Origin: a virus
Taxonomy: Duplodnaviria; Caudoviricetes
Direction: 5' to 3' (one strand)
IMG/VR virus record: IMGVR_UViG_3300021976_000019
Span: 1-53,071 of that record
DNA: 53,071 nt
Of this stretch, positions 1,356 to 36,053 are shown piece after piece. Made by a program: the position numbers and the translations under genes. The first letter of the stretch is position 1, and every line of letters starts with the position of its first letter. The notes beneath the pieces are model-generated. The model saw only the letters and a program-made list of their open reading frames with translations, ran no database searches and was not told where the DNA came from.

Positions 1356-1810
1356 CCGTAGGAGGGGTCGTGGCCGATGTGGTCCTCATGCCGTCCGTTG
1401 TAGCCGGGCTTGAACACCCACTCCGACGCCACAGCGTGCCCGTAATCGCCGTTGATCGCCTTGCTGAGGAAGTAGGCCACCGCCTCGTCGAAGGCGCTGA
1501 CACCGGTCTTCTCGCCCTCGCTGACAGCCTTCTGGGCCTTGCTATACGAATAACTTCCGATGCGCTCGGAGTTGAACGGAGAGAAGCTGGCCTCGGCGTC
1601 CTCATGACGCTCGGTAATCGCCCAGGCCATCTCCAGGACGGCCTGCTGCCAAATCCGGACCTCCAGGGGTCCGTCCAGTTCTTCCTGCTTGTCGATCCCC
1701 GTGGCCATGGTGAAAAGATCAGCGGCTCGCTGGATCGCCGTAGCGTCATCCGGAGGCTCGCGATACTTCTCCAGGTCCAACGGAGACGGGAGGATCAGAT
1801 CCGCCATCAT
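1340..1810 (-). CDS. putative head-tail adaptor/connector
   Basis: SERIGSYSYS motif typical of phage head-tail adaptors; GGAGG RBS upstream. Confidence 0.6.
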   Translation of the reverse strand: MMADLILPSPLDLEKYREPPDDATAIQRAADLFTMATGIDKQEELDGPLEVRIWQQAVLEMAWAITERHEDAEASFSPFNSERIGSYSYSKAQKAVSEGEKTGVSAFDEAVAYFLSKAINGDYGHAVASEWVFKPGYNGRHEDHIGHDPSYGWWSH

Positions 1811-1835
1811 CCCCACCTCCCGTCTTCGTCAGTGA

Positions 1836-2510
1836 CTAGCGCTGAGCCTGCTGCTCCATCACCGCGCGGAGCTTCTCCTTGTCCTCTTCGCTGAGGGCCG
1901 GATCTTCCAGGTCGAACGTGTCGCCGGTCCACGGACCGTGGCTGAACATCATCCGGCCGTAGCGCACCCGCTGCTGAGTCGGCGTCAGGCGAGCCCAGTG
2001 GTCGTCCTCCTTCGGGACGTACTCCTGGCCGCGGTAGAAGACGTAGGCGCCGACCGTGAAGCCGTCGTCGACGAAGTGCACCACCGCGGGGAGCGGGCCT
2101 CGGTTCTGGATCTGGCCACCGGTTGCGAAGCCGCGGCCGTCCCGGTAGAGCTTGCCCAGCTCAGAGTTGGCGCGGTTGTCGTCGGGATTGTTGGTGCTGA
2201 CGTTGACGACCGTGTGGGCCTGGTTCTTCAGTGCCTCGGCCCGGACCTCAGCCTCGATCTCCGCACGAACCTGCGCCCGGATGTCCGCCATCGAGATCTC
2301 AGAGGCGGGATCGTGCTCGATCTTGGCCGCGACGCCAGAGACTTCGGAGACTTCCTCCGGCTCAGGGTCGGGAACCGACTCCGCCTTCTTCGCGGTCTTC
2401 TTGGCTGCGGTCTTCTTCACCGGAGCCGGTTCCTGCTTCTCGTCGTCGACCTCGCCCAGAGCGTCCTTCAGCAGGTCGTCCAGGTCATCGTGATCGTTCT
2501 CTGCGTTCAT
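1836..2510 (-). CDS. hypothetical protein (capsid module)
   Basis: 224 aa, AAGGAAG RBS-like sequence, acidic and KKTAAKK low-complexity N-terminus. Confidence 0.6.
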   Translation of the reverse strand: MNAENDHDDLDDLLKDALGEVDDEKQEPAPVKKTAAKKTAKKAESVPDPEPEEVSEVSGVAAKIEHDPASEISMADIRAQVRAEIEAEVRAEALKNQAHTVVNVSTNNPDDNRANSELGKLYRDGRGFATGGQIQNRGPLPAVVHFVDDGFTVGAYVFYRGQEYVPKEDDHWARLTPTQQRVRYGRMMFSHGPWTGDTFDLEDPALSEEDKEKLRAVMEQQAQR

Positions 2511-2530
2511 GACGCTTCCTTCGTTGTTGG

Positions 2531-2824
2531 TCAGCGGCCGTAGGACCGCGGGTCCGGGTTGACGTTGCTGACCGGGTTCTCCCCATCGATCCCGATCGGG
2601 CGTCCCTTGTCATCGGTCTCGACGGTGTCGCTCTGCACCTTCTTGACCTCTTCCTCACGCTTCTTGCGAGCGTCCTCCTGCTCCTTCTCCAACGCCTGGT
2701 CGGCCTTCAGGCGGGCCTCAGCGGCCTCCTGGGAAGCCTTCTCCACGTCGGTCAGGGTCCCGCTGTCGTCGCTGCTCTTGGGCTCGCTCGAAGCAGCCTT
2801 CTTCGCGGGCGTCGTCTCTGCCAT
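2531..2824 (-). CDS. hypothetical charged protein
   Basis: 97 aa, GAGGGAG RBS, directly after the major capsid gene. Confidence 0.6.
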   Translation of the reverse strand: MAETTPAKKAASSEPKSSDDSGTLTDVEKASQEAAEARLKADQALEKEQEDARKKREEEVKKVQSDTVETDDKGRPIGIDGENPVSNVNPDPRSYGR

Positions 2825-2847
2825 GTCTCCCTCTCACTCCAATGAAC

Positions 2848-2880
2848 TGGACCCCGACCCGCCGGAGCGGACGGGGTCCA
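2848..2880 (-). terminator. GC-rich stem-loop after the major capsid gene
   Basis: TGGACCCCG...CGGGGTCCA inverted repeat; only a weak U tail. Confidence 0.55.
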
Positions 2881-2918
2881 ATGCCTTTTGCCTATGAAGT
2901 TGTGCTCAGCCTAAACGA

Positions 2919-3920
2919 TCAGGCCTTGACCGTGGCCACGACGATCTGCTCGGGGCGGGTCAGGACGGGAAGGGCCTGCTCCTCCAGGAGGTACTGGCGG
3001 GCGCTCGGGTCCTTCTCCTTCCAGGTCTTGGCGAAGCGACCGATGAAGTTGTCCGGCGCCTCGTCGTCAGCCGACGGACCGCGGACCAGCTCCAGCGGGT
3101 TGTTCTGGTTCAGCTCGGCGAAGAGCACCACGTTGTTCGGCAGGAAGCCCGTCGAGATGTGGGAACCGTCGGTCTGGCGGATGTCATACATCGTGTCGAC
3201 GACCCGCCAATCCATCCCCATGAAGCCGCGGAGGGTGCCGGACGCGAAGTACTCGTCCTTCATCCGATCGCTCATCAGGGAGATGCCATCACGAGTGAAG
3301 GAGGTGACGATGTAGTTCAGCGTGTCGCTGGTCGCGTACGCCGTCTTCACCTCGACATGGCCGTCGCGGAGGATGATCTTCTTCCACGCCTGGATGTTGG
3401 CCACGATCTCCTGCGGAGTGGCAACGTCCCACTCCTCGGCCGCGGTGACCTTGTGCGAAGCCGGGATCTTGTAGTCGATCGAGGCCTGCACGTCCGGAGA
3501 GTCGATGACCAGGGAGCCCTGGAGGCACTGCCAGAGTGCCCACTCCCAGAAGTTGTCGAATCGGGCGTTGAGGTCGCGAACCTCCTTGAGGACCTCTTCC
3601 TCAGCGTTGCGCAGGTTCTGGGCAGAACCTGGGGCCTTCAGCCAGTGGAGCGTGGTCGGCTTGAAGACCTTCTTCTCGCGGAGGTAGACGAGGTTCGCGC
3701 TCTCCATCGAGATACCGAGCCGCGGCACGACGTGCGCCTCGGAGTTCGGCACGTTCGGGGTCGCCATCGTCCGTGCACCGCGACGAACCTCCCACTGAAC
3801 GAACGGGTAAGGGGTGGTCCCCTTGGGCGTCCCGTTGAACAGCATCAGGTTCGCGGCTGGCGCGATCTTGGAGACGACGTTGCGAAAAACGTTCGGCTCC
3901 AGGAGGCTCGGCTCGGGCAT
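2919..3920 (-). CDS. major capsid protein (lambda E-like)
   Basis: 333 aa after protease and decoration genes; IDYKIPASH, W-x-EKDP and ALPVL-x-RP motifs typical of the Phage_cap_E family. Confidence 0.8.
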   Translation of the reverse strand: MPEPSLLEPNVFRNVVSKIAPAANLMLFNGTPKGTTPYPFVQWEVRRGARTMATPNVPNSEAHVVPRLGISMESANLVYLREKKVFKPTTLHWLKAPGSAQNLRNAEEEVLKEVRDLNARFDNFWEWALWQCLQGSLVIDSPDVQASIDYKIPASHKVTAAEEWDVATPQEIVANIQAWKKIILRDGHVEVKTAYATSDTLNYIVTSFTRDGISLMSDRMKDEYFASGTLRGFMGMDWRVVDTMYDIRQTDGSHISTGFLPNNVVLFAELNQNNPLELVRGPSADDEAPDNFIGRFAKTWKEKDPSARQYLLEEQALPVLTRPEQIVVATVKA

Positions 3921-27218: not shown

Positions 27219-28126
27219 AGCTGTACCTCGTTCGACTTCTCGGCCTCCTCGACCTGCATCAGGTCGAAGTCAGCACGGTCGAAGGTGACGCGGTTCCGAC
27301 CCTGGGTGTCCTTGGAGATCGGGTTCACGAACCGCGGACACGCCGCCTTGGTCGGGCAGTTCCAGCACTCGTTCTTGTCTTCGGTCAGCTCCCAGTGACC
27401 CGCCCAGACGTTGTGGCAGTAGCCAATGATCCGGGAGATCATCTCGCGACGATCGTCGTTGGTGACGGTCAGGTTGATCTCGGTCTCGTCCAGCAACGGG
27501 CACCAGAAGGCATGCTCGACCGGTCGGACTCCGGTGTGGCCGCGGAAGGCCAGATCGTAAAAGATCAGCTGAGCAAGGGTGGACTTGATGTAGGAGTCCC
27601 GCCGGGTGATCTTGAGGTCGTAGAGCCCGTACTGGCCCTGCTCGAAGTGAGTCGCCACGTCGACAGCACCGAAGATCTCGATCTGAACCGTCTCGCCGTT
27701 CAGGCCTGGGATGCCGACCACCGAGGTGAACCGGAACTCCGGCTTGAAGGCGAACGGGGTGACCTTCTTCAGCAGAATCGGCTCCAGCGTCTTCAGCGCG
27801 GTCCGCACGTCCTCCAGCACTGTGAGCTGGTCGGTATTGTGGTTGCCCTTCCATTTGATCACGTACTCGGCGTCCGGACCGGTGTGGCGTTCCCACTCCT
27901 CATCGAGGTACTCCAGCATCCCGCCGGAATTGAACCTGCCAGCGCTGAGCCAACTGCGCATGCACCGGTCAGCCAAAGTTCCTGGGAGAAAGTTGCGGCC
28001 GTCTGTGACCGGGCTCTTCTTGCCCTGCATCAACAGCTTGGTCCGCTGCCTGCACTTCTCGTAGTTCTGCAGCCGGGACCAGGACAGCCGGATGCGTTGC
28101 GGAGCGTCCACGCAGACCGCAGTCAT
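27215..28126 (-). CDS. PD-(D/E)XK Cas4/RecB-like exonuclease
   Basis: SWSRL...C, PE...GAVD...YDLK, QL-x-xY and C-terminal CWNC-x5-C. Confidence 0.8.
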   Translation of the reverse strand: MTAVCVDAPQRIRLSWSRLQNYEKCRQRTKLLMQGKKSPVTDGRNFLPGTLADRCMRSWLSAGRFNSGGMLEYLDEEWERHTGPDAEYVIKWKGNHNTDQLTVLEDVRTALKTLEPILLKKVTPFAFKPEFRFTSVVGIPGLNGETVQIEIFGAVDVATHFEQGQYGLYDLKITRRDSYIKSTLAQLIFYDLAFRGHTGVRPVEHAFWCPLLDETEINLTVTNDDRREMISRIIGYCHNVWAGHWELTEDKNECWNCPTKAACPRFVNPISKDTQGRNRVTFDRADFDLMQVEEAEKSNEVQL

Positions 28127-29403
28127 TCCACTCTCCTGACACGCAGTTGGATCAGAGGGATGTGCTCTGCCTCTTTCTCAATGACCACCGTCTTGAATCC
28201 CTCCAGCAGTGCGGCCTCAGCCGTCGTACCGGACCCAGCGAACGGGTCGAGCACGAACCCATCGGGAGGGGTGACCAGCCGGACCAGCCACCGCATCAGC
28301 GCCAGCGGCTTGACGGTCGGATGGGCTACACCATCGACCACCGGGCGTTCCTTCTTCGGGGCCTTCGCCACGTACATGAATCGGGACGCGCCGCCGGTGT
28401 CGTCGTGCCCGGTCCGGGGGAGATCCTTCGCTGTCCACGCGTCATCGTTCATGATCCCGAGTGCCTTGGTGCTCTTGCCGCCGGACTTGCTGACGGTTCG
28501 CCCCGACTGCTCGTCGAGCGCGGCCGCCTGGTCCTCGTCCAAGATCACGTTCGCGGGCCAGCGGCCTGACGGCATAGGCCCGCCCATGGTTGCCTGATTC
28601 GCCTTGGTCCACTCGTCGTCGGCGTAGACACCGTTCGTGCCTCCGCCATGGCGGACCCGGCCAGGCTCGGCCCCTTGCCCCTCAATCCGGCACCCATCGA
28701 TGTTCAGTGCCCCAGTGCCGTGCTCCAGCACGTTCGCCACGACCGTGCCCCGGATCGGCTTGCGAGCCACGATGATCGGTTCGAACGCGGGCTTGAGCGC
28801 GGTGCCCCAGCCCTGCCACTGCTCGGCCTCGGGCGTCGCCGGGGTGGTCTCGACGGACGGAGGACGCGCTACCACGTTGCCCATATGGCCTGCGCTGCGA
28901 CCTGATGCCGGGCCTTGGTTGAAGGTCCCTCCGTCGCCGTACGTCTTGAGCCCGATCACTTCCCGCGTCGCCCCGGCCGCCTTGTCGATCGCCTTCGACA
29001 CGTCCATCGACTTCGGGAATCCCGACCCGTACAGCCACGCGATTGAGTCGCGGATCTCGAACCCACCCAGGCGGATCGCCAGCGTCATCAGGTCGAAAGT
29101 GCGTGATCCGGCGAAGCTCAACAGGTACCCACCCGGCTTGAGCACCCGCAAGCACTCCTTCCAGACGGCGGGACCGGGAACGAAGCTGTCCCAGGACTTG
29201 CCCATGAACCCGTTGCCCTTGTGGACGTAGTCATCACCCGCCAGCCAGTGCTTCATCACCTCGACCATGTCGGGCTCCCTGCTCAGACCGTACGGAGGGT
29301 CAGTGACGATCGCGTGGATGGTCTCCGCCTTCAGTTTCCGCAGCACGTCGAGACAGTCGCCTTCGATGATGGCCACACGCTCAGACTTCTCGACCACCCG
29401 CAT
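28123..29403 (-). CDS. DNA N6-adenine/N4-cytosine methyltransferase (beta class)
   Basis: TDPPY motif before HPTVKP and LDPFAGSGTT. Confidence 0.9.
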   Translation of the reverse strand: MRVVEKSERVAIIEGDCLDVLRKLKAETIHAIVTDPPYGLSREPDMVEVMKHWLAGDDYVHKGNGFMGKSWDSFVPGPAVWKECLRVLKPGGYLLSFAGSRTFDLMTLAIRLGGFEIRDSIAWLYGSGFPKSMDVSKAIDKAAGATREVIGLKTYGDGGTFNQGPASGRSAGHMGNVVARPPSVETTPATPEAEQWQGWGTALKPAFEPIIVARKPIRGTVVANVLEHGTGALNIDGCRIEGQGAEPGRVRHGGGTNGVYADDEWTKANQATMGGPMPSGRWPANVILDEDQAAALDEQSGRTVSKSGGKSTKALGIMNDDAWTAKDLPRTGHDDTGGASRFMYVAKAPKKERPVVDGVAHPTVKPLALMRWLVRLVTPPDGFVLDPFAGSGTTAEAALLEGFKTVVIEKEAEHIPLIQLRVRRVE

Positions 29404-29870
29404 CAGTACCGCAGCTCAAGAGCCTCGGGCGCGTACGCCCGGACGACCAGGGTGGGGATGCCCAGCTCCTGCTCGACCGCGGTCCGGATGTTCCAGGAGT
29501 CCTCCAGCAGAAGCTTGATGTCGTACTCCACCATCAGCGCACGCAGCCCGGTCAGCTTGTAGCCAACGGTTCCCAGTCCTGAGTTCCCGTCCATCACAAG
29601 CCGATCGAAGCGAACATCGTGCCTGGCCATCCAGGCTTCGGTCTCAGGCCGTGATTCCTCCGGCCGAGAGGTCAAAAGAATGATCTTGTAGTGGGGCTTC
29701 AAAAGACTCAGCAGTGGGACCGTGGCGGTGGGAAGATCGTCAGCGCACGCCTTGGCGTAAGCGGTCCAGTCGGTGTTCTCCCGCTCTTCCCCCTGGAGGA
29801 TCAGACCCTGTCGGTGCAAGGTGTCAGCCAAGGTGCTGTCGATGTCGGCCACGACGGCTGCAGGCTTCAT
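29403..29870 (-). CDS. HAD-family phosphatase (PNKP 3'-phosphatase-like)
   Basis: DIDSTLA motif I, LTSR motif II, K and LED motifs. Confidence 0.8.
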   Translation of the reverse strand: MKPAAVVADIDSTLADTLHRQGLILQGEERENTDWTAYAKACADDLPTATVPLLSLLKPHYKIILLTSRPEESRPETEAWMARHDVRFDRLVMDGNSGLGTVGYKLTGLRALMVEYDIKLLLEDSWNIRTAVEQELGIPTLVVRAYAPEALELRY

Positions 29871-29932
29871 AGAGTGACCCTTCGGCAGATTGAATTGGTC
29901 CTCGGGAGCCTAGCCGTCTGTGTGTCGGATCG

Positions 29933-30560
29933 TCAACTAACCAGGGAGCCGAGACGACCCTTCAGAGCCTGCTTCATGCTGGCGCTGCGACCGGGCCCGG
30001 AGACCTGGTCGCGCCAGGCCGTCCAGGTCCAGGATCGACCCTGCTCGAAGACCTCCTGGCGGCCTTGGTTGGCCCGCTGAGCGACGTTCTCGGCCTGTCG
30101 GCGACCCAGCTCCGTCTCCAGCCTGGTCCACGCCACACGGCGATTCTCATGCTGGGAGCGGGACTCCACCGCGGTGACCACCACACCGGTTGGCTTGTGG
30201 GTGAGCCGGACCGCAGAATCAGTCTTGTTCCGGTGCTGTCCACCCGGCCCGGTGTCGCGATAGGTGTGCACCAGCACGTCGCCCTTATCGAGCTGGAGAG
30301 ACTTCGGAGACTTCTCGTCCAGGGCGACCACGGTCACGATGCTGGAATGACGCCGCCCGCGCTTCTCGGTGTCAGGGACCCGCTGGATGCGGTGCGTCCC
30401 GGCCAGGGTTGCGAGGGAGCGGTCAAAGACGGTGGAGAACCAGGACCCGGCCGTCGACCTCGACGGGACGGCCGGAGAAGGTACTGATGGCGGAGGCCAG
30501 CTCGGCCGCGAACTGCTCAGCGTCCGCTCCGCCATCGCCTGCATGGATCTCCAGTCTCAT
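29933..30560 (-). CDS. class I peptide release factor homologue (RF1-like PxT, GGQ), predicted +1 frameshift
   Basis: ORF1 30560-30423 (MRLEIHAGDGGADAEQFA...HRL*) ends in CTT TGA C; the +1 frame continues DRSLATLAGTHRIQRVPDTE...GPGGQHRNKTDSAVR. Confidence 0.85.
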
Positions 30561-30570
30561 GCCGGAGAGG

Positions 30571-31116
30571 TTACCGCCGATACGACCGGAACGCTTCCTC
30601 CAGCATGGGGTAGATCCGGTTCAGCCGGGCGAAGGCGTCATTCTCCGAGTAGCTGTCGTCAGCCGACACCAGGAAGTCGTTGCCTTCGAAGCGGTTGTCG
30701 AAGTTGACTGAGATACCCGAGAAACCACCCTCCCGGCGCTCGACAGATCCAGGCGTGCCGGATTTAGTCCGAGTGGCGCGGTAGTGCGGCTGGTCGGGAA
30801 TCAAGAAGTCGTCGTTGTACCAAACCTGAGCCAGCGTCCGGTAATGCAGCCCGATCAGGTTCTGGGCGACGACCTGAGCGGTGTCGGGATTCAGGCCGCG
30901 GGACTCGATCATCAGGTGACCGGACTGACCGACCACGATCAGGTGAGCCCCACACTCAGGGAAGGGGGAGCTGGGAAGTTCGCCCTCCGAGGAGGTGGCC
31001 TTCGTCAACGGGTCACCCCAAAAGATCGGGCTGATGCAGGCCGGGTGGTGGAGCCGGATGACGTAGGAGTGGATGGTGACCTTGGCCGTGTCGACGGCGA
31101 CGCTGTCTGCGCTCAT
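30571..31116 (-). CDS. hypothetical protein (probably leaderless)
   Basis: 181 aa; GCCGATACT ends 8 nt before the ATG, no Shine-Dalgarno. Confidence 0.55.
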   Translation of the reverse strand: MSADSVAVDTAKVTIHSYVIRLHHPACISPIFWGDPLTKATSSEGELPSSPFPECGAHLIVVGQSGHLMIESRGLNPDTAQVVAQNLIGLHYRTLAQVWYNDDFLIPDQPHYRATRTKSGTPGSVERREGGFSGISVNFDNRFEGNDFLVSADDSYSENDAFARLNRIYPMLEEAFRSYRR

Positions 31117-31134
31117 GCCCGATCAGTATCGGCG

Positions 31135-32073
31135 CTACAGGACCGACTCGATGATCTCGCGCAACTCAGCCTTAGCCCGTGGTGACAGCTCAGTGCTCTC
31201 AGCGTGGGCGATGACCTGCTCCATGCTGAGGCTGGTCAGGGAGACCTTGCCGACCGACTCCAGGAACTCGTCGAGCTTCTCCTCACGCTCCTGCTTCTGA
31301 GCCACCTCAGCCAGCCGGAAGACTTCCGCGGCCGGGCGATGCGGAACGTCCACCGAGGTGAATGGGCAACCAGTGGCGTCTGGATCGAACAGGGTGATCT
31401 TGGGCTCTCGCTTCAGCGTCTCCTCGTGCAAGGAGCCACGGGAGATCGCGCCGTTGTTGCAGACCCAGGCATCGTGGCTACGGAAGAACCCGTAGCTGTC
31501 GTGGATATGCCCCATAGCCACTGGGACGCCCTCCGTGACGATCTGAGAGGCGTCCAGGTGCGGGTACGGGGGATTGATGCCAGAGGGGAAAATCGCGGCG
31601 TGGACGGCGATCAAGGCCGGACGGGTCCCGACCAGGGTCTCGTCACAGGCCACGTTCATGTGCGTCTGGAGATCCTCCAGGTCATCGGTGTAGGGAATGC
31701 CGTAGATCCCAGTCTCGGTGTCCAGACCCTGCAGCAGGGTGATGTTCGAGCTGAGCGCCAGCGTGCCGAGCGGCTGAGTCGGGATGGACTCCAGCCGGTC
31801 CTGCTGCAGGTCATGGTTGCCGGGGACGATCAGGACCCGGCCGCGGAAGGCGGCGAGGATCTCCGCGGTCCGGCGAACTAGGCCGTGGCTCGTCCGATGT
31901 GGGACCTTCACGTGGAAAACGTCACCAAGTTGAGTGATTGACTCAGCATTCACCTGGTTGGCGTAGTCGACGATCCACTCCAGCTTGGTGAGGATGTCAT
32001 CGGAGTAATCATCGGTCCTCGAACTGGGTGGGTTGTCCGAAAGATGCAGATCGCCGACCAACACGTGCACCAT
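31135..32073 (-). CDS. SbcD/Mre11-like metallophosphoesterase nuclease
   Basis: GDLH, GDVFH, GNHD and GHIH motifs. Confidence 0.85.
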   Translation of the reverse strand: MVHVLVGDLHLSDNPPSSRTDDYSDDILTKLEWIVDYANQVNAESITQLGDVFHVKVPHRTSHGLVRRTAEILAAFRGRVLIVPGNHDLQQDRLESIPTQPLGTLALSSNITLLQGLDTETGIYGIPYTDDLEDLQTHMNVACDETLVGTRPALIAVHAAIFPSGINPPYPHLDASQIVTEGVPVAMGHIHDSYGFFRSHDAWVCNNGAISRGSLHEETLKREPKITLFDPDATGCPFTSVDVPHRPAAEVFRLAEVAQKQEREEKLDEFLESVGKVSLTSLSMEQVIAHAESTELSPRAKAELREIIESVL

Positions 32074-32696
32074 CAGGCATCTTCTTTCAGCAGCTGACTC
32101 AAGCGATTTTTGCGGGTGGACTCCGACTTACACGTGCGGCACCACCGACTAATCCCAGTTTTGGTCTTCCTGATCATGTCGTAGGGATGTCCCCGTGGGC
32201 AACGACTCTTGATCTGGTTGTGGTGCCTCCCCTTTGCCACTTTGTCCTGCATGTTCTTGGTTCGAGTACCCAGCACGAGATGGGCGGGGTTGCAACAAGA
32301 CGGGTTGTCACAGGTGTGCATGGACTCCTCAACCGAGGTCAGCGGCCGACCAAGCTTCAACCGCAGGGCGAACCGATGAGCGGTGGTTGTCTTCTCGCCG
32401 TCGTAGAAGACTCCGTACCCAGCGTTCTTCTTGGACTTGGTCCACTCCCAGCAGTCATCCTCGCCGCGGATCTCTACCTTGGGCCAGAACCTCTCCTCAG
32501 GTGGAAGAGCTGGAGCCCCATTCCTCTTGGGTCCGAACAACTCCCGCTTCCGCCGAGCCTCCTCACGATTCCTCCGATTCTGCTGATCCCGCATGCAGAT
32601 CCGGCACATCCTGGCGCCATCACTCTTGCGGACGAAGGTGGTCTCGGGAACCCACTCATGTCCGTGGGCGCAGTGGGTCTTCTTCACGAACGTCAC
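32073..32696 (-). CDS. HNH homing endonuclease
   Basis: RFWPKV..CWEW, AHR, HTCDNPSCCNPAHL...N, flanked by CxxGH...CxxC zinc-finger-like modules. Confidence 0.85.
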   Translation of the reverse strand: MTFVKKTHCAHGHEWVPETTFVRKSDGARMCRICMRDQQNRRNREEARRKRELFGPKRNGAPALPPEERFWPKVEIRGEDDCWEWTKSKKNAGYGVFYDGEKTTTAHRFALRLKLGRPLTSVEESMHTCDNPSCCNPAHLVLGTRTKNMQDKVAKGRHHNQIKSRCPRGHPYDMIRKTKTGISRWCRTCKSESTRKNRLSQLLKEDA

Positions 32697-32723
32697 AGTT
32701 GCACACTACATGATGACGACGCG

Positions 32724-32924
32724 TTACCGTGGCAAGGTGCTACGCACAATCTTGGCTATCAGCTCCGGGCTGCACCCGATGATCCGAGCCAGGCGTTTGT
32801 AGGTCCAGTAGTGGGAGTCTTCTCGCCGTAGTTGACGCAGCAGCTCATCCCTACGCTCCCGATGACGTGCAGCGGCGAGGGACGCTTCGTGCTCGTCCCT
32901 CGCCGCCGCGGCCCTGACATCCAT
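32724..32924 (-). CDS. small helix-turn-helix protein
   Basis: 66 aa, WTYKRLARIIGCSPELIAKI; directly downstream of the Ro gene. Confidence 0.6.
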   Translation of the reverse strand: MDVRAAAARDEHEASLAAARHRERRDELLRQLRREDSHYWTYKRLARIIGCSPELIAKIVRSTLPR

Positions 32925-32933
32925 CGTGGACTT

Positions 32934-34529
32934 CTAGATCCGTCCAGCCGAAAAATCGGCCAACAGCTGTGGCGCAGCGCTGTCGAGCCCGGCCAGGTCC
33001 ATCGATCCCGGATCGTTCGGATCGGCGATGGAGAACTTCGTTGCCGTCATCCCCCACACCACGTTCCGAGCCGGAATTCCGGTCTTGTCGCGGTACTTCT
33101 TCAGCGCCTGGTGCGGGTGGATTCCGCCGTACCACGTCTCGTTATCGGTCAGGGTCGAGAAAGTGTCAACCTCCAGCCCCTGACGAAGTGCCTCGACCAT
33201 TGGCAAAGCGCAGTCGGTTCCGGCGAACGGCAGGTTCGACACCGACCGGATCACATCGTCCAGCCGCTGGCGCGGGCTGATCGACAGCTCCCGGAAGGTG
33301 GTCGAGAAGCCGTAGACCGCGACCTCGGGCTCGGTGGCCACCGTGATCAGCGCCATCGCGGCCGAAGCCTCCCGCGGCGTAACCGGGCTGTCCGACATGT
33401 AGCTCGCCCCCATCGATCCTGAGACATCCAGGCCGATCAGGGTCCGCTTGTTGGCGGGCCGGACGTTGCCGAAGGACAGGTAGAACGCCTTGTCCAGCGC
33501 ATCAGCGATCTGCCGCACGGGAGCCCACGAGGTCTGGCCCCGGAAGCTCTGGCCCGACGCGTAGGTCCGCTGAGCGACCAGCACGTTGAACGGGTGCACC
33601 CGGCCCTTGGTCAGGTACTCCTGGTTGCCCAGCTGCTCGACGATCGCCGCCGTCCGGTTGCCCTTCTTCAGGCCGCTGGCCACGACCTCCAGCCGGGTCA
33701 GCCGCGGGAGCTGACGAATCAGCGCCGTCATTGGCAGACCCTGGTCGACCAGAGCCTCCCAGACCTTGCGCTCCTTGAGCGCCTCATCCGGCAGCATCTC
33801 CCAGCTCAGACCAAAGTCAGTGACCAGTCCAGCCCAGGTGTCGACCGTGGTCGCCTCCTGCGCCTTCAGGTAGCCGTGGACGATCCGTGGCAGGTTCTCC
33901 GAGACCGTGCCCTGGGTCACCCACTTGTAGAGCGCGTTGCGCTGCTCGTTGTCGGTCTTCGGGTGGAAGAGCCGAAGCAGGTCACGCTGGGTGAAACCTT
34001 CGCGGCTGCGGTACTTCACCAACTGGTAGGCCAGAGCGTCGGGACGCTTGACCTCGTACCAACGCCGAGCGGCCTTCTTCAGGCCGGTGCCACCGAGACC
34101 ACGGAACTGCTTGAGGTACTTGGCGAACATGGCGAAGTGCGTGCCGATGCGAAGGACTTCTGGCATGGCGTCGAAGGCGGCCTTGCGTCCGGCCTCGTTC
34201 TTCGAAGCCGCGGCTGCGGCGAGGGCGAAGATGGTGGCGTTCTGCTTGGGAGCGCGACCCTCGATCGAGATCTCCTTGATGATCTCCACCAGACGCTCGG
34301 GGCTGTGCTCGGCCCAGGCGAGGATCTCGGCTGCGTTCTCCTTGGTCAGTTCCTGCACGCCCTGGTAGAACGATGCGGCCGAACCGAGAATGAGGAACCG
34401 GCGGATGCGGTCCTCGGGCGAGATCTCAAAGACGAATCCGCCAGCGTTGTTCACGACCTGGCGAGGATCGGCCTGCTCGCGCTGAGGAGTCTGCCGGGTA
34501 CGGATGGCGGTGAGTGGATCGTTGGTCAT
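32934..34529 (-). CDS. rsr: Ro60/Rsr TROVE-domain RNA-binding protein
   Basis: NNAGGFVF, RFLILG, LVKYRSREG..RDLLRL-x-HP, MTALIRQL, vWA MIDAS DVSGSM, TDNETW; start at 34529 after GGAG. Confidence 0.95.
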   Translation of the reverse strand: MTNDPLTAIRTRQTPQREQADPRQVVNNAGGFVFEISPEDRIRRFLILGSAASFYQGVQELTKENAAEILAWAEHSPERLVEIIKEISIEGRAPKQNATIFALAAAAASKNEAGRKAAFDAMPEVLRIGTHFAMFAKYLKQFRGLGGTGLKKAARRWYEVKRPDALAYQLVKYRSREGFTQRDLLRLFHPKTDNEQRNALYKWVTQGTVSENLPRIVHGYLKAQEATTVDTWAGLVTDFGLSWEMLPDEALKERKVWEALVDQGLPMTALIRQLPRLTRLEVVASGLKKGNRTAAIVEQLGNQEYLTKGRVHPFNVLVAQRTYASGQSFRGQTSWAPVRQIADALDKAFYLSFGNVRPANKRTLIGLDVSGSMGASYMSDSPVTPREASAAMALITVATEPEVAVYGFSTTFRELSISPRQRLDDVIRSVSNLPFAGTDCALPMVEALRQGLEVDTFSTLTDNETWYGGIHPHQALKKYRDKTGIPARNVVWGMTATKFSIADPNDPGSMDLAGLDSAAPQLLADFSAGRI

Positions 34530-34546
34530 GGTGGTCTCCGTTCTTT

Positions 34547-34579
34547 TCGGTCTACGCAAGGATGGTCCTCGCAGACAAG
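34547..34579 (-). promoter_or_regulatory. 5'-UTR hairpin with a strand-swapped Ro-binding helix (candidate operator)
   Basis: CTTGTCT-GCGAGGA-CCA-TCCTTGCGT-AGACCGA, ending 17 nt before the rsr ATG. Confidence 0.55.
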
Positions 34580-34586
34580 TGGGGGT

Positions 34587-34720
34587 CCCAGACAAGGGAG
34601 TGAGGACTCGAAATTTTACGGTTGCTCTACCACTGAGCTACGCGCCCGAAGTTGTCGGGCGGGCAGGATTCGAACCTGCGACCCACTGTTTCCTTGGTAA
34701 CGAATCTTCGTCGGTCTGGG
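34587..34720 (-). ncRNA. yrlA: Y RNA unit 1, YrlA-type circularly permuted tRNA mimic
   Basis: CCCAGACCGA...CTTGTCTGGG terminal helix enclosing T arm GCAGG-TTCGAAT-CCTGC, loop-closed acceptor CGCCCG..CGGGCG and D arm TA-GCTC-AGTGGTA-GAGC. Confidence 0.88.
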
Positions 34721-34724
34721 GTTA

Positions 34725-34883
34725 CACCCATCAGGAACTACAGACGAGGGGTTGCGTCCCGATCAAAGCTCTTTCGCGGAGGGATTCGAACCCCCGACAT
34801 CCGGAGGTTTAGGTCCGGCGTTCTGCCTCTGAACTATGCGAAAATAACGGAAAGTCGCTTCGGTCTGTAGATCCTGAAGGATG
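34725..34883 (-). ncRNA. Y RNA unit 2, carrying a complete canonical-order tRNA-like domain (34771-34843)
   Basis: CTACAGACCGA...CTCGTCTGTAG helix; acceptor TTTCGCA/CGCGAAA, D arm GTTC-AGAGGCA-GAAC, anticodon arm CCGGA-CCTAAACC-TCCGG, T arm GGGGG-TTCGAAT-CCCTC. Confidence 0.8.
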
Positions 34884-35012
34884 CACCTGAGAGGGAGAGA
34901 CAAGAGATGAGCAGTCGAGGTTCACCCCCGCCTACCAGGCTCTGAACCTGGCGGCCAGGGACTCTGTAATCACAGGGTTAACGACCGCTCCGCGGTCTCT
35001 CCTTCGAAGGTG
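34884..35012 (-). ncRNA. Y RNA unit 3
   Basis: GGAGAGACCG...CTTGTCTCTCC helix, second helix GAGCGGTCG/CGACTGCTC, T-arm-like CCAGG-TTCAGAG-CCTGG. Confidence 0.75.
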
Positions 35013-35015
35013 AAG

Positions 35016-35166
35016 CACCCATCAGGACCACCAGACAAAGGGGCGAGGACCCGAAATGCCGCTCTACCAGGTACTGCTGCGGCGAACACGGGAGCCTTGA
35101 CCACCGTATCGGATTCGAACCAATTAGTTAACGGATCGCTCATCGGTCTGGAAATCCTGAAGGGTG
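35016..35166 (-). ncRNA. Y RNA unit 4, degenerate permuted tRNA mimic
   Basis: CCAGACCGA...TTTGTCTGG helix; T arm ATTGG-TTCGAAT-CCGAT, then a D-like hairpin containing TGGTAGAGC. Confidence 0.78.
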
Positions 35167-35246
35167 GAGAGATGGAGACAAGGAAACGAATGCCGGGGAT
35201 TCTCTGCAATGGTAAGATAACCGACTTTCAGCGGTCTCCACCTCTC
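35167..35246 (-). ncRNA. Y RNA unit 5, minimal (80 nt)
   Basis: GAGAGGTGGAGACCG...CTTGTCTCCATCTCTC helix with a short insert and no T loop. Confidence 0.72.
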
Positions 35247-35264
35247 AACCTTCAGTTGCTAAGA

Positions 35265-35372
35265 CAGAGACAAGGAATGCCAACCGGGGTTTAATCTGGG
35301 ACCACCCAACGACGGGATCGAACCGCCCGACTCTCATTCAAAGGGAGTTAACCGATTATGCTTCGGTCTCTG
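35265..35372 (-). ncRNA. Y RNA unit 6
   Basis: CAGAGACCGA...CTTGTCTCTG helix; anticodon-arm-like hairpin, T arm GGCGG-TTCGATC-CCGTC and short TGGG-TGGT-CCCA hairpin. Confidence 0.78.
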
Positions 35373-35413
35373 CTTCAGCGTTCACTGTTGAGTTGTTTGG
35401 TGGTGCAGACGTT

Positions 35414-35443
35414 ACTCTAGTACTGCCAGTTGTCAGGTGTCAA
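35414..35443 (-). promoter_or_regulatory. sigma-A/sigma70-type promoter of the Y RNA-rsr operon
   Basis: TTGACA-18 nt-TAGAGT, about 40 nt upstream of unit 6. Confidence 0.75.
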
Positions 35444-35456
35444 GAAGGTTTTCTGG

Positions 35457-36053
35457 TCAGATCACTTCGGCTTCGAGGCCAGCACCGACGGCGAAGGTTG
35501 CGGCCTCACGCGGGGTCTCGAAGGTCGTGACCCAGTTGGTGCCTCGGACGTAGTACTTGTACCGGGTTCCCTCCATCTTGCCCAGGAAATCTCCCAGGAG
35601 CGTATCGACCTGGGCCAGGCAATCGTCCTTGATCACGTAGAGGCCCGCAGTCTGGGCGTCGTCGTTCTGGAAGTCGCCACCGCTGGCGCAGTCACCCTCC
35701 TTCTCGGACACAGCCATGGGGTAGGCACCGACGAATCCCTCACGTGCCTCGGCGTAGGTCAGGTAGGTGGATGGCGGCTGCGGCGACGGCGTCTCGGGAA
35801 TCGGGGTCTCAGCGACTGGCGTCTCGGGCGGGGGCACATACGGAGTGGGGGAAGCCGCGGGGGCGATGGGCACCGTGGTCCTCGACTGAGCCACCTGGAG
35901 AGCGAGATAGGAAACCAGAGCGACGAGGAGGAGAGCGGCCACCGCGATCACGATGATCTTCGCCACGGGACTCTTCTTCGGCGGGACCGGCGGCTGCTGT
36001 GGGTACTGCGGCTGTACGGGCGGCTGGGGCGCCCCGTACTGGGGCTGGGACAT
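35457..36053 (-). CDS. membrane-anchored protein, Pro/Gln-rich N-terminus
   Basis: 198 aa, single TM helix, Pro/Thr linker, AAGGAGG RBS. Confidence 0.75.
   Translation of the reverse strand: MSQPQYGAPQPPVQPQYPQQPPVPPKKSPVAKIIVIAVAALLLVALVSYLALQVAQSRTTVPIAPAASPTPYVPPPETPVAETPIPETPSPQPPSTYLTYAEAREGFVGAYPMAVSEKEGDCASGGDFQNDDAQTAGLYVIKDDCLAQVDTLLGDFLGKMEGTRYKYYVRGTNWVTTFETPREAATFAVGAGLEAEVI

Follow-up and report, generated by a model that had tools for sequence, protein, structure and literature searches.

The phage DNA described here, IMG/VR virus record IMGVR_UViG_3300021976_000019, comprises 53,071 bases and is referred to in its full length as the window. It encodes Rsr, an ortholog of the RNA-binding protein Ro60, in a gene (rsr) on the minus strand that is surrounded by phage-type genes. 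Next to the rsr ribosome-binding site (RBS), the messenger RNA (mRNA) leader carries a hairpin that contains both strands of the Ro-binding helix of Y RNAs in reversed order. The feature is real, recurs before rsr genes of other phages and bacteria, and is best read from its sequence as a Y-RNA-mimic operator of rsr. In this reading, to which a probability of about 0.5 is assigned, the hairpin would be a cis mimic of the Y RNA site. Rsr would repress its own translation through it, with Y RNAs as competitors. We infer co-transcription with a Y RNA array, binding by Rsr, repression and Y RNA competition.

The minus strand reads, in order, CCTTGTCTGGGACCCCCA, CTTGTCT, GCGAGGA-CCA-TCCTTGC, GU, AGACCGA, AAAGAAC, GGAG, ACCACC and ATG. 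The features of the leader and its gene are:

34573..34579, minus strand: 5' arm CTTGTCT, matching in sequence the 3' strand of the six Y RNAs' Ro-binding helix
34554..34572, minus strand: capping hairpin GCGAGGA-CCA-TCCTTGC plus GU, closing the side where Y RNA termini would lie
34547..34553, minus strand: 3' arm AGACCGA, with the sequence of the 5' strand (the Ro-contact strand with the bulged C) of the Y RNA helix
34536..34539, minus strand: GGAG Shine-Dalgarno (SD) sequence of rsr, 6 nucleotides (nt) before the ATG and 7 nt after the helix
32934..34529, minus strand: rsr (Ro60 ortholog, protein P0001, 531 amino acids, full-length), from Pfam and structure-sequence matches

An earlier note on this DNA had described a seventh motif pair, reversed and joined by a hairpin, 7 nt from GGAG and 17 nt from the ATG; its coordinates agree exactly. 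Letter for letter, the two arms match the core of the helices in the phage's own six Y RNAs. RNAfold minimum free energy (MFE) and centroid structures contain GUCU/AGAC and the 7-bp stem GCGAGGA/UCCUUGC, and the SD is unpaired in the centroid. An alternative register of the capping region, UCUGCG/CGUAGA, has six contiguous pairs and a 13-nt loop.

Single motifs are unremarkable in the window: AGACCG occurs 71 times (50.7 expected) and YTYGTCT 17 times (30.9 expected). It is their alternation in the Y RNA array and the seventh, reversed pair that stand out. A reversed pair in a 60-nt leader is expected by chance with a probability of about 2e-4, as estimated from minus-strand densities outside the array (43 AGACCG and 6 YTYGTCT per 53 kb). 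Since the motifs are short and common and the folding z-scores in the window are weak, related sequences are decisive.

The identity of the gene is clear from Pfam matches to vWA_Ro60 (1e-57) and TROVE (3e-41). The protein also matches Deinococcus radiodurans Rsr (2NVO, 3e-112) and Ro60 (1YVP, 3e-93), the Xenopus and human Ro60 matches being at about 1e-93. The ATG at 34529-27 is the likely start, as the matches of relatives begin at protein residues 1-4. A TTG at 34595 was rejected as start; it would fall inside the sixth Y RNA, and no relative has such an extension. The possibility raised earlier, that translation begins further upstream, is thus not borne out. A giant Y RNA built around the open reading frame (ORF), from the 5' motif of the leader and a 3' motif past the rsr stop, was also rejected, as no YTYGTCT lies near 32900. 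Rfam searches returned nothing on 34545-34580 of the window even at E-values up to 10, and nothing on the hairpin in seven other loci.

Recurrence was examined in 342 rsr loci, which came from phage records, Nocardia-family genomes and collections of viral, metagenome and genome sequences. Of these, 316 included the N-terminus together with 150 nt or more of upstream sequence, and they gave 275 distinct leaders. A canonical reversed helix was defined as [TC]G-YYY, a stem of at least four contiguous pairs (or three if the loop had at most 5 nt), a loop of 3-13 nt, and RRR-CCG[AG]. The helix ends at -60..0 in 28 of the 275 leaders, or 1.67e-3 per nt. Background rates were 1.64e-4 per nt on the plus strand downstream of the start (133 matches in 812,018 nt) and 8.7e-5 per nt on the minus strand (106 matches in 1,218,451 nt). 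At the downstream rate, the Poisson probability of at least 28 leader matches is 5e-19. Leaders of other ORFs in the same loci, chosen with SD-like sites as a control for purine-rich RBS neighbourhoods, carried the helix in 6 of 488 cases (Fisher odds ratio 9.1, p = 2e-8). The check proposed in the earlier note, a search for the same hairpin before other rsr genes, hence came out in favor of the element. An earlier, independent version of the scan limited the purine triplet to the YrlA-type 5' motif of the locus itself. It yielded seven matches in 4,508 leader nt, against 29 in 290,705 nt and 31 in 437,422 nt of background.

The 28 positive leaders belong to the window, 13 Nocardia loci, three metagenome loci (L045, L081, L106), five IMG/VR contigs (L205, L207, L215, L216, L218) and three metagenome-assembled genomes (MAGs), namely L295 (Abditibacteriaceae), L330 (Myxococcales) and L332 (Myxococcota). 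The remaining three are from Microbacterium phage Zooman and Streptomyces phages Stigma and Coruscant. Rsr is encoded in 14 of 301 sampled Nocardia-family genomes. With the genome of L112 added, the hairpin stands between the last Y RNA and the SD in nine of the 15 and is missing from six.

Nine Streptomyces phages have the element within short intergenic spacers. The canonical reversed helix is present in eight (Stigma, Gilson, Evy, Spelly, Sollertia, Riptide, Tomas and Coruscant), while the ninth, EGole, has the variant GGGUCGA. Stems (CCCA/UGGG, CCUU/AAGG, CCCU/AGGG, CCC/GGG) and loops (AUU, GAA, AGAA, AAGA, AAA, AAAA) vary among these phages. A YrlA-like module was not found in the 640-700 nt upstream of the gene in Stigma, EGole and Coruscant, so that the element of these three phages is no by-product of a neighboring array. 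Two further variants outside the canonical set were spotted by eye, L085 (UAG for UUG) and L088 (CCAA/UCG).

In a FastTree phylogeny of 270 Rsr proteins, from which L216 was excluded because of its short ORF, 29 positives form 15 all-positive clades. Presence changes 15 times on the tree, as compared to a mean of 27.9 and a minimum of 24 after shuffling.

The arms of the hairpin copy the Ro site of the respective lineage. In the window, the phage's own Y RNAs have AGACCG / YGUCU, and the leader has AGACCGA / CUUGUCU. Nocardia L185 has CGGACCGGA / ACACGUCCG in its Y RNAs and CGGGACCGGA / CAUGUCCCG in the leader, with the triplet GGA/UCC in both; its relatives have GGG in both places. L088 has GAGCCAA / AUCGCUC in its Y RNAs and GGGCCAA / AUCGCCU in the leader. 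Lineages with UUG keep UUG in the leader, and actinobacterial lineages with (A)CAYG keep CAUG or CACG.

The inner stem covaries. An alignment of 15 sequences (A2) has 89.7% of its cells paired, against 30-54% with the partner slid. Both sides change in four of eight pairs, and none of 500 shuffles reaches the covariation score. Among the 28 elements, counted by script without L085 and L088, inner pair 4 is GC in 11, CG in 10, TA in three, AT in two and GT in one, and inner pair 5 is GC in 11, CG in six, AT in two and TA in one. A fifth pair is present in 20 of the 27 elements that have four, and the loop has 3-7 nt in 26 of 28. The numbers from both sets overstate independence, given the pairing-based selection and the kinship of many of the sequences. 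The claim that the helix rebuilds the Ro site is strengthened by the arms, which track the lineage's own Y RNA helix, and by the covarying inner stem.

The same data bear on the proposal of an Rsr-independent structural hairpin. Such a hairpin could act as a weak attenuator, as a nuclease site or as an insulator that prevents the strands of the sixth Y RNA and the SD from mispairing, and its likeness to the Y helix would stem only from an origin in the repeat array. It is the predicted MFE or centroid structure in all ten leaders folded, and the inner stem and the loop vary freely, as such a hairpin would allow. What is conserved, however, is what marks the Ro site and not what any hairpin would need, namely YG...CCGR, the bulged C and a purine triplet that matches the lineage's own Y RNAs. 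The element also occurs without an adjacent Y array. In the window, the hairpin is followed by AAAAGAAC and not by a U tract, so that it is no intrinsic terminator or attenuator, and there is no terminator-like site. A purely structural role is considered improbable.

The position of the element relative to the RBS recurs as well. In 19 of the 28 leaders, 12-21 nt separate the helix end from the start. From CCGR to the beginning of the SD core, the distance is at most 2 nt in 11 leaders and 3-10 nt in nine, including the window (7 nt), and two leaders have the SD inside the hairpin. The likely 5'-strand recognition motif continues straight into the SD in many leaders (GGGCCGAAAGGAG). In Coruscant and the additional Streptomyces phages Evy and Riptide, the only SD-like tract is inside the hairpin; the 5' arm of the Coruscant hairpin overlaps the end of the upstream coding sequence (CDS). 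Across lineages, the constant neighbor is the RBS, not a Y RNA.

On these grounds, the following mechanism is proposed for the operator. The bulged helix retains its two strands (5'-AGA-C-CGA paired to UUG-UCU), with their order swapped and a hairpin as cap. The strands therefore exit the helix on the CGA/UUG side, and the RBS takes the place where a Y RNA would carry its effector module. Rsr unoccupied by Y RNA would bind the leader helix and keep the 30S subunit off the rsr mRNA. Exclusion of the 30S subunit by bound Rsr would follow from the distances of 7 nt to the SD and 17 nt to the ATG. The hairpin by itself does not sequester the SD in most predicted folds, so any control would need a bound protein. 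Y RNAs would compete for Rsr, and Rsr synthesis would then follow the supply of free Y RNA. A broader proposal, offered tentatively, is that Ro60/Rsr may be autogenously regulated in many bacteria and phages. The mRNA would be a 'Y RNA in cis' with its own RBS as effector module; free Rsr would shut off its own mRNA or hand it to a nuclease, and Y RNAs would relieve this effect.

Upstream of the leader hairpin, six forward Y-RNA-like modules (AGACCG ... YTYGTCT) are located on the minus strand. AGACCG occurs at 35369, 35237, 35149, 34998, 34866 and 34717, each time followed 57-123 nt further on by YTYGTCT. In each module, YTYGTCT can pair with AGACCG around a bulged C. The array and its putative promoter comprise:

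35414..35443, minus strand: promoter-like site TTGACA-18-TAGAGT upstream of module 1, a consensus match only
34894..35373, minus strand: Y RNA-like modules 1-4 (about 35373-35264, 35246-35167, 35151-35031 and 35002-34894), from motif positions
34738..34870, minus strand: Y RNA-like module 5 with a tRNA-like domain, from Rfam tRNA (49 bits at 34771-34843) and ARAGORN
34587..34720, minus strand: Y RNA-like module 6 (CCAGACCGAC ... CCTTGTCTGG), directly 5' of the leader hairpin, from a weak Rfam YrlA match

The YrlA score of module 6 is 34.2 bits, below the gathering score of 69. ARAGORN calls module 5 a tRNA of undetermined type. The AGACCG/YGUCU helix of all six modules is unusual, as most bacteria have GGGCCG/YGCCC. 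In 32700-35700, TTGACA-18-TAGAGT is the sole such promoter-like site. No terminator-like site was found in this region and thus none between the promoter-like site and rsr. A single transcript of the six modules and rsr (Y1-Y6-rsr) is plausible from this arrangement, with one promoter-like site before module 1 and no terminator before rsr. Downstream of rsr, at 28123-32696 on the minus strand, ORFs are replication- or modification-like, as judged from translations alone. They include DNA methyltransferase-like, metallophosphoesterase/SbcD-like and HNH-like sequences.

An array of this kind offers another origin for the hairpin. In this phage, it could be a functionless, neutral leftover of recombination in the array, made up of the 3' strand and then the 5' strand of a lost module. 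The reversed order arises at every tandem Y RNA junction, so that an origin by repeat rearrangement is easy. The nearest relative, L275, is without a clean copy, and close relatives on which conservation in the lineage could be tested are lacking, as the best identities are 64% and then about 56%. Yet an orphan 3' strand and an orphan 5' strand would need two separate deletions. The GGTTA motif of the Y RNA body follows the 5' motif in none of the 28 leader elements. The compact, SD-adjacent design is found in about 15 clades, in contrast to the 6 of 488 control leaders. A leftover without function is considered improbable.

The suspected common transcript also permits a function without translational repression. 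The Rsr-bound hairpin might serve as 5' cap or roadblock of the rsr mRNA after the Y RNAs have been cut from a Y1-Y6-rsr precursor. It would protect from 5'-end-dependent decay or set the processing site, and the feedback would be positive or a mere coupling to Y RNA processing. The window and the 13 Nocardia leaders have the hairpin immediately after the 3' strand of their last Y RNA. In a Nocardia subclade it adjoins the Y RNA, with the SD 23-24 nt away. The location of the sole promoter-like site upstream of Y1 and an orphan reversed helix in three loci (L117, L119, L158), about 300 nt upstream, before the first Y RNA and far from the SD, point in the same direction. The Streptomyces phage element, however, follows an upstream CDS with no Y RNA nearby. 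The SD-like tracts inside the hairpins of Coruscant, Evy and Riptide, and the overlap of the Coruscant 5' arm with the upstream CDS, speak against a cap. The distance of 12-21 nt from helix end to start in most leaders is not required of a pure 5'-end stabilizer either. Such a cap is considered unlikely.

The three loci just mentioned are from Mycolicibacterium. Relative to the rsr start, their orphan reversed helix (UUUGCCCGC ... GCGGGCCGG) lies at about -320 to -295, and the first Y RNA follows it directly. It may represent an element of the same type, placed at the head of the operon transcript.

Several results weigh against a translational operator. The folding z-scores of the window hairpin are weak (-1.2 and -1.5), and those of the leaders are mostly between -0.7 and -1.5, with two positive values, and mostly non-significant against shuffles. 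The canonical match is absent from 247 of the 275 leaders. A generic pattern (YG-stem-loop-stem-CCGR, stem of at least three pairs) shows no enrichment, with 0.0025 per nt in leaders and about 0.002 per nt in other places. Tandem Y RNA junctions produce the same strand order automatically, with 104 matches in the upstream zone and 48 in an earlier set. The leaders are phylogenetically non-independent, 13 of the 28 being from Nocardia. The positives were selected by a pattern that demands pairing, and covariation at the three bulge-side pairs is partly ascertained. A covariance model (R1; eight sequences, 24 positions) scores the window element with 20.6 bits (E = 0.26). In one Nocardia subclade (seven of the 28 positives), the helix ends 34-37 nt before the start, and another hairpin lies in between.

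The closest relative overall, an Actinomycetota MAG (L275, 64% protein identity), has the same AGACCGA/CUUGUCU Y helix. At this place, its leader contains only a weak CCG...CGG-CCGA that lacks the G-C pair, which is the chief finding against conservation of the hairpin in the lineage of the window. The element is also absent from the large group of Bxz1-like mycobacteriophages and prophages and from Gordonia phages BearBQ, Cashline and BlueNGold. BearBQ and Cashline are the closest cultured relatives, BearBQ being the best with 54.5% protein identity.

Kribbella and most Mycolicibacterium leaders are also without the element, and its distribution is patchy. Searches with model R1 returned its own training sequences (weak E-values of 0.0017-0.33) and mostly plus-strand Y RNA junctions, and no new leader elements. 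When support by the own Y RNAs was scored with 5- and 6-mers, it was found for 5 of 15 leader, 190 of 829 coding and 270 of 1076 minus-strand matches. The presence of the hairpin in related leaders, as anticipated in the earlier note, thus holds for the Nocardia-family genomes and Streptomyces phages counted above; it does not hold for L275, which has no clean copy, nor for most leaders.

Other leaders showed related arrangements. Nocardia loci L183-L185, L328, L338 and L342 have a second conserved hairpin at -34 to -1, e.g. CCGAUA-CGAG-UAUCGG. It lies between the Ro-helix mimic and the start, and its 3' arm enters the SD GGAGGGGG. In ten other loci (L025 from Microbacterium phage SM23, L027 from FuzzBuster, L068, L161, L014, L136, L150, L157, L159 and L160), the SD coincides with the end of a forward mini Y helix or of the last Y RNA. 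The 3' strand of SM23 and FuzzBuster, CACAUCUGAAAGG, includes the SD in its own sequence. Control of the same logic may also operate with the strands in normal order. In the SM23 record, the Ro homolog (1467-3041) is divided between two annotated CDSs, one for an RNA-binding protein (1467-2288) and one for a hypothetical protein (2565-3041); the gene may be split or broken there. Five Kribbella loci (L133, L134, L140, L149, L172) as well as L003 and L031 contain an extra lone 3'-strand motif between the last Y RNA and the SD, e.g. CAUGCCCG or UUUGCCC, with no matching 5' motif.

Bacterial Y RNA modules were matched by the Rfam family ceN72-3_ceN74-2 (nematode stem-bulge RNAs) in L081 (171-281 and 2221-2293) and L109 (1262-1367). 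One of these matches exceeds the gathering score (50.2 versus 38 bits). In L081, positions 1-164 match the 3' portion of a bacterial RNase P RNA gene (54 bits) that is truncated by the locus end. This portion immediately precedes the Y RNA array in front of rsr.

Ro60 is a major human autoantigen and an RNA quality-control protein. How cells match the amount of Ro60 to Y RNAs is a question that the hairpin makes directly testable, the more so as the element occurs in cultured Streptomyces and Microbacterium phages and in Nocardia. If the operator reading is true, the hairpin would be the first cis-regulatory target of Ro60. The minimal Ro-binding determinant would then amount to about 3+3 base pairs flanking a bulged C and would not depend on RNA termini. 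Binding of Rsr to the hairpin would mean that recognition needs neither free RNA termini nor a given helix connectivity and would provide a minimal tag for tethering Ro60. It would also mean that phages with Ro60 and up to six Y RNAs regulate the ratio of protein to RNA.

In passages of Chen et al. (2014; PMC4201824), the 5'-strand motif GNCGAAN0-1G is described as the likely Rsr recognition element, and Ro60 is stated to contact mainly the 5' strand (citing Stein et al., 2005). According to the same passages, YrlA, YrlB, Yrn1 of D. radiodurans and animal Y RNAs share a duplex of XXX-C-CGA(A) with a bulged C and YUG-X'X'X'. The leader hairpin shares this helix sequence and differs in the rest. 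In Y RNAs, the 5' strand comes first and the end-region helix is open on the terminus side. The hairpin has the reversed order and is capped by GCGAGGA-CCA-UCCUUGC; leader elements in general are capped on the terminus side by a loop of 3-13 nt or a small hairpin. Where a Y RNA continues into a large internal loop or tRNA-like module, the CGA side of the hairpin leads to AAAGAAC-GGAG-ATG. Y RNAs are stable small RNAs, whereas the hairpin is part of an mRNA, and no Rfam Y RNA model matches it. Because topology and effector module differ and an Rfam match is missing, the hairpin does not count as a Y RNA. A cis-acting Ro60 target was not described in the literature searched, in line with the earlier note, which knew of no such autoregulation reported for Ro60, a mention in reviews or supplements, including the phage Y RNA tables and figures of Chen et al. 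(2014), being possible. Term searches of the text available from that paper and from a 2025 paper on a Thermus phage Ro60 found no mention of an untranslated region (UTR), leader or autoregulation.

The leader hairpin resembles established autogenous operators in several respects. The thrS operator of Escherichia coli is a mimic of the tRNA-Thr anticodon arm just upstream of the SD. Leaders of ribosomal proteins (S8, S15, L1, L20) contain autogenous operators that mimic the RNA ligand of the protein. As in these systems, the gene that carries the hairpin in its 5' UTR encodes the RNA-binding protein; the hairpin ends 17 nt before the rsr ATG. It likewise copies the site of the protein's primary RNA ligand, the variants AGA, GGA and CCAA/UCG being shared with the Y RNAs. 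It is next to or overlaps the RBS, with at most 10 nt to the SD in 20 of 28 leaders and the SD inside in two. The predicted logic, a competition between abundant ligand RNA and mRNA, would be the same. The protein family is different, and the mimic is strand-swapped rather than colinear. To our knowledge, Ro60 is not known to autoregulate. Phage repressor sites provide a second comparison, namely the replicase hairpin bound by the MS2 coat protein and the operators of T4 RegA and gp32. The rsr element is likewise a small hairpin of a phage mRNA at the RBS, with a phage-encoded RNA-binding protein as the proposed binder. Unlike the MS2 and T4 sites, it copies a separate non-coding RNA ligand and occurs in bacterial chromosomes as well.

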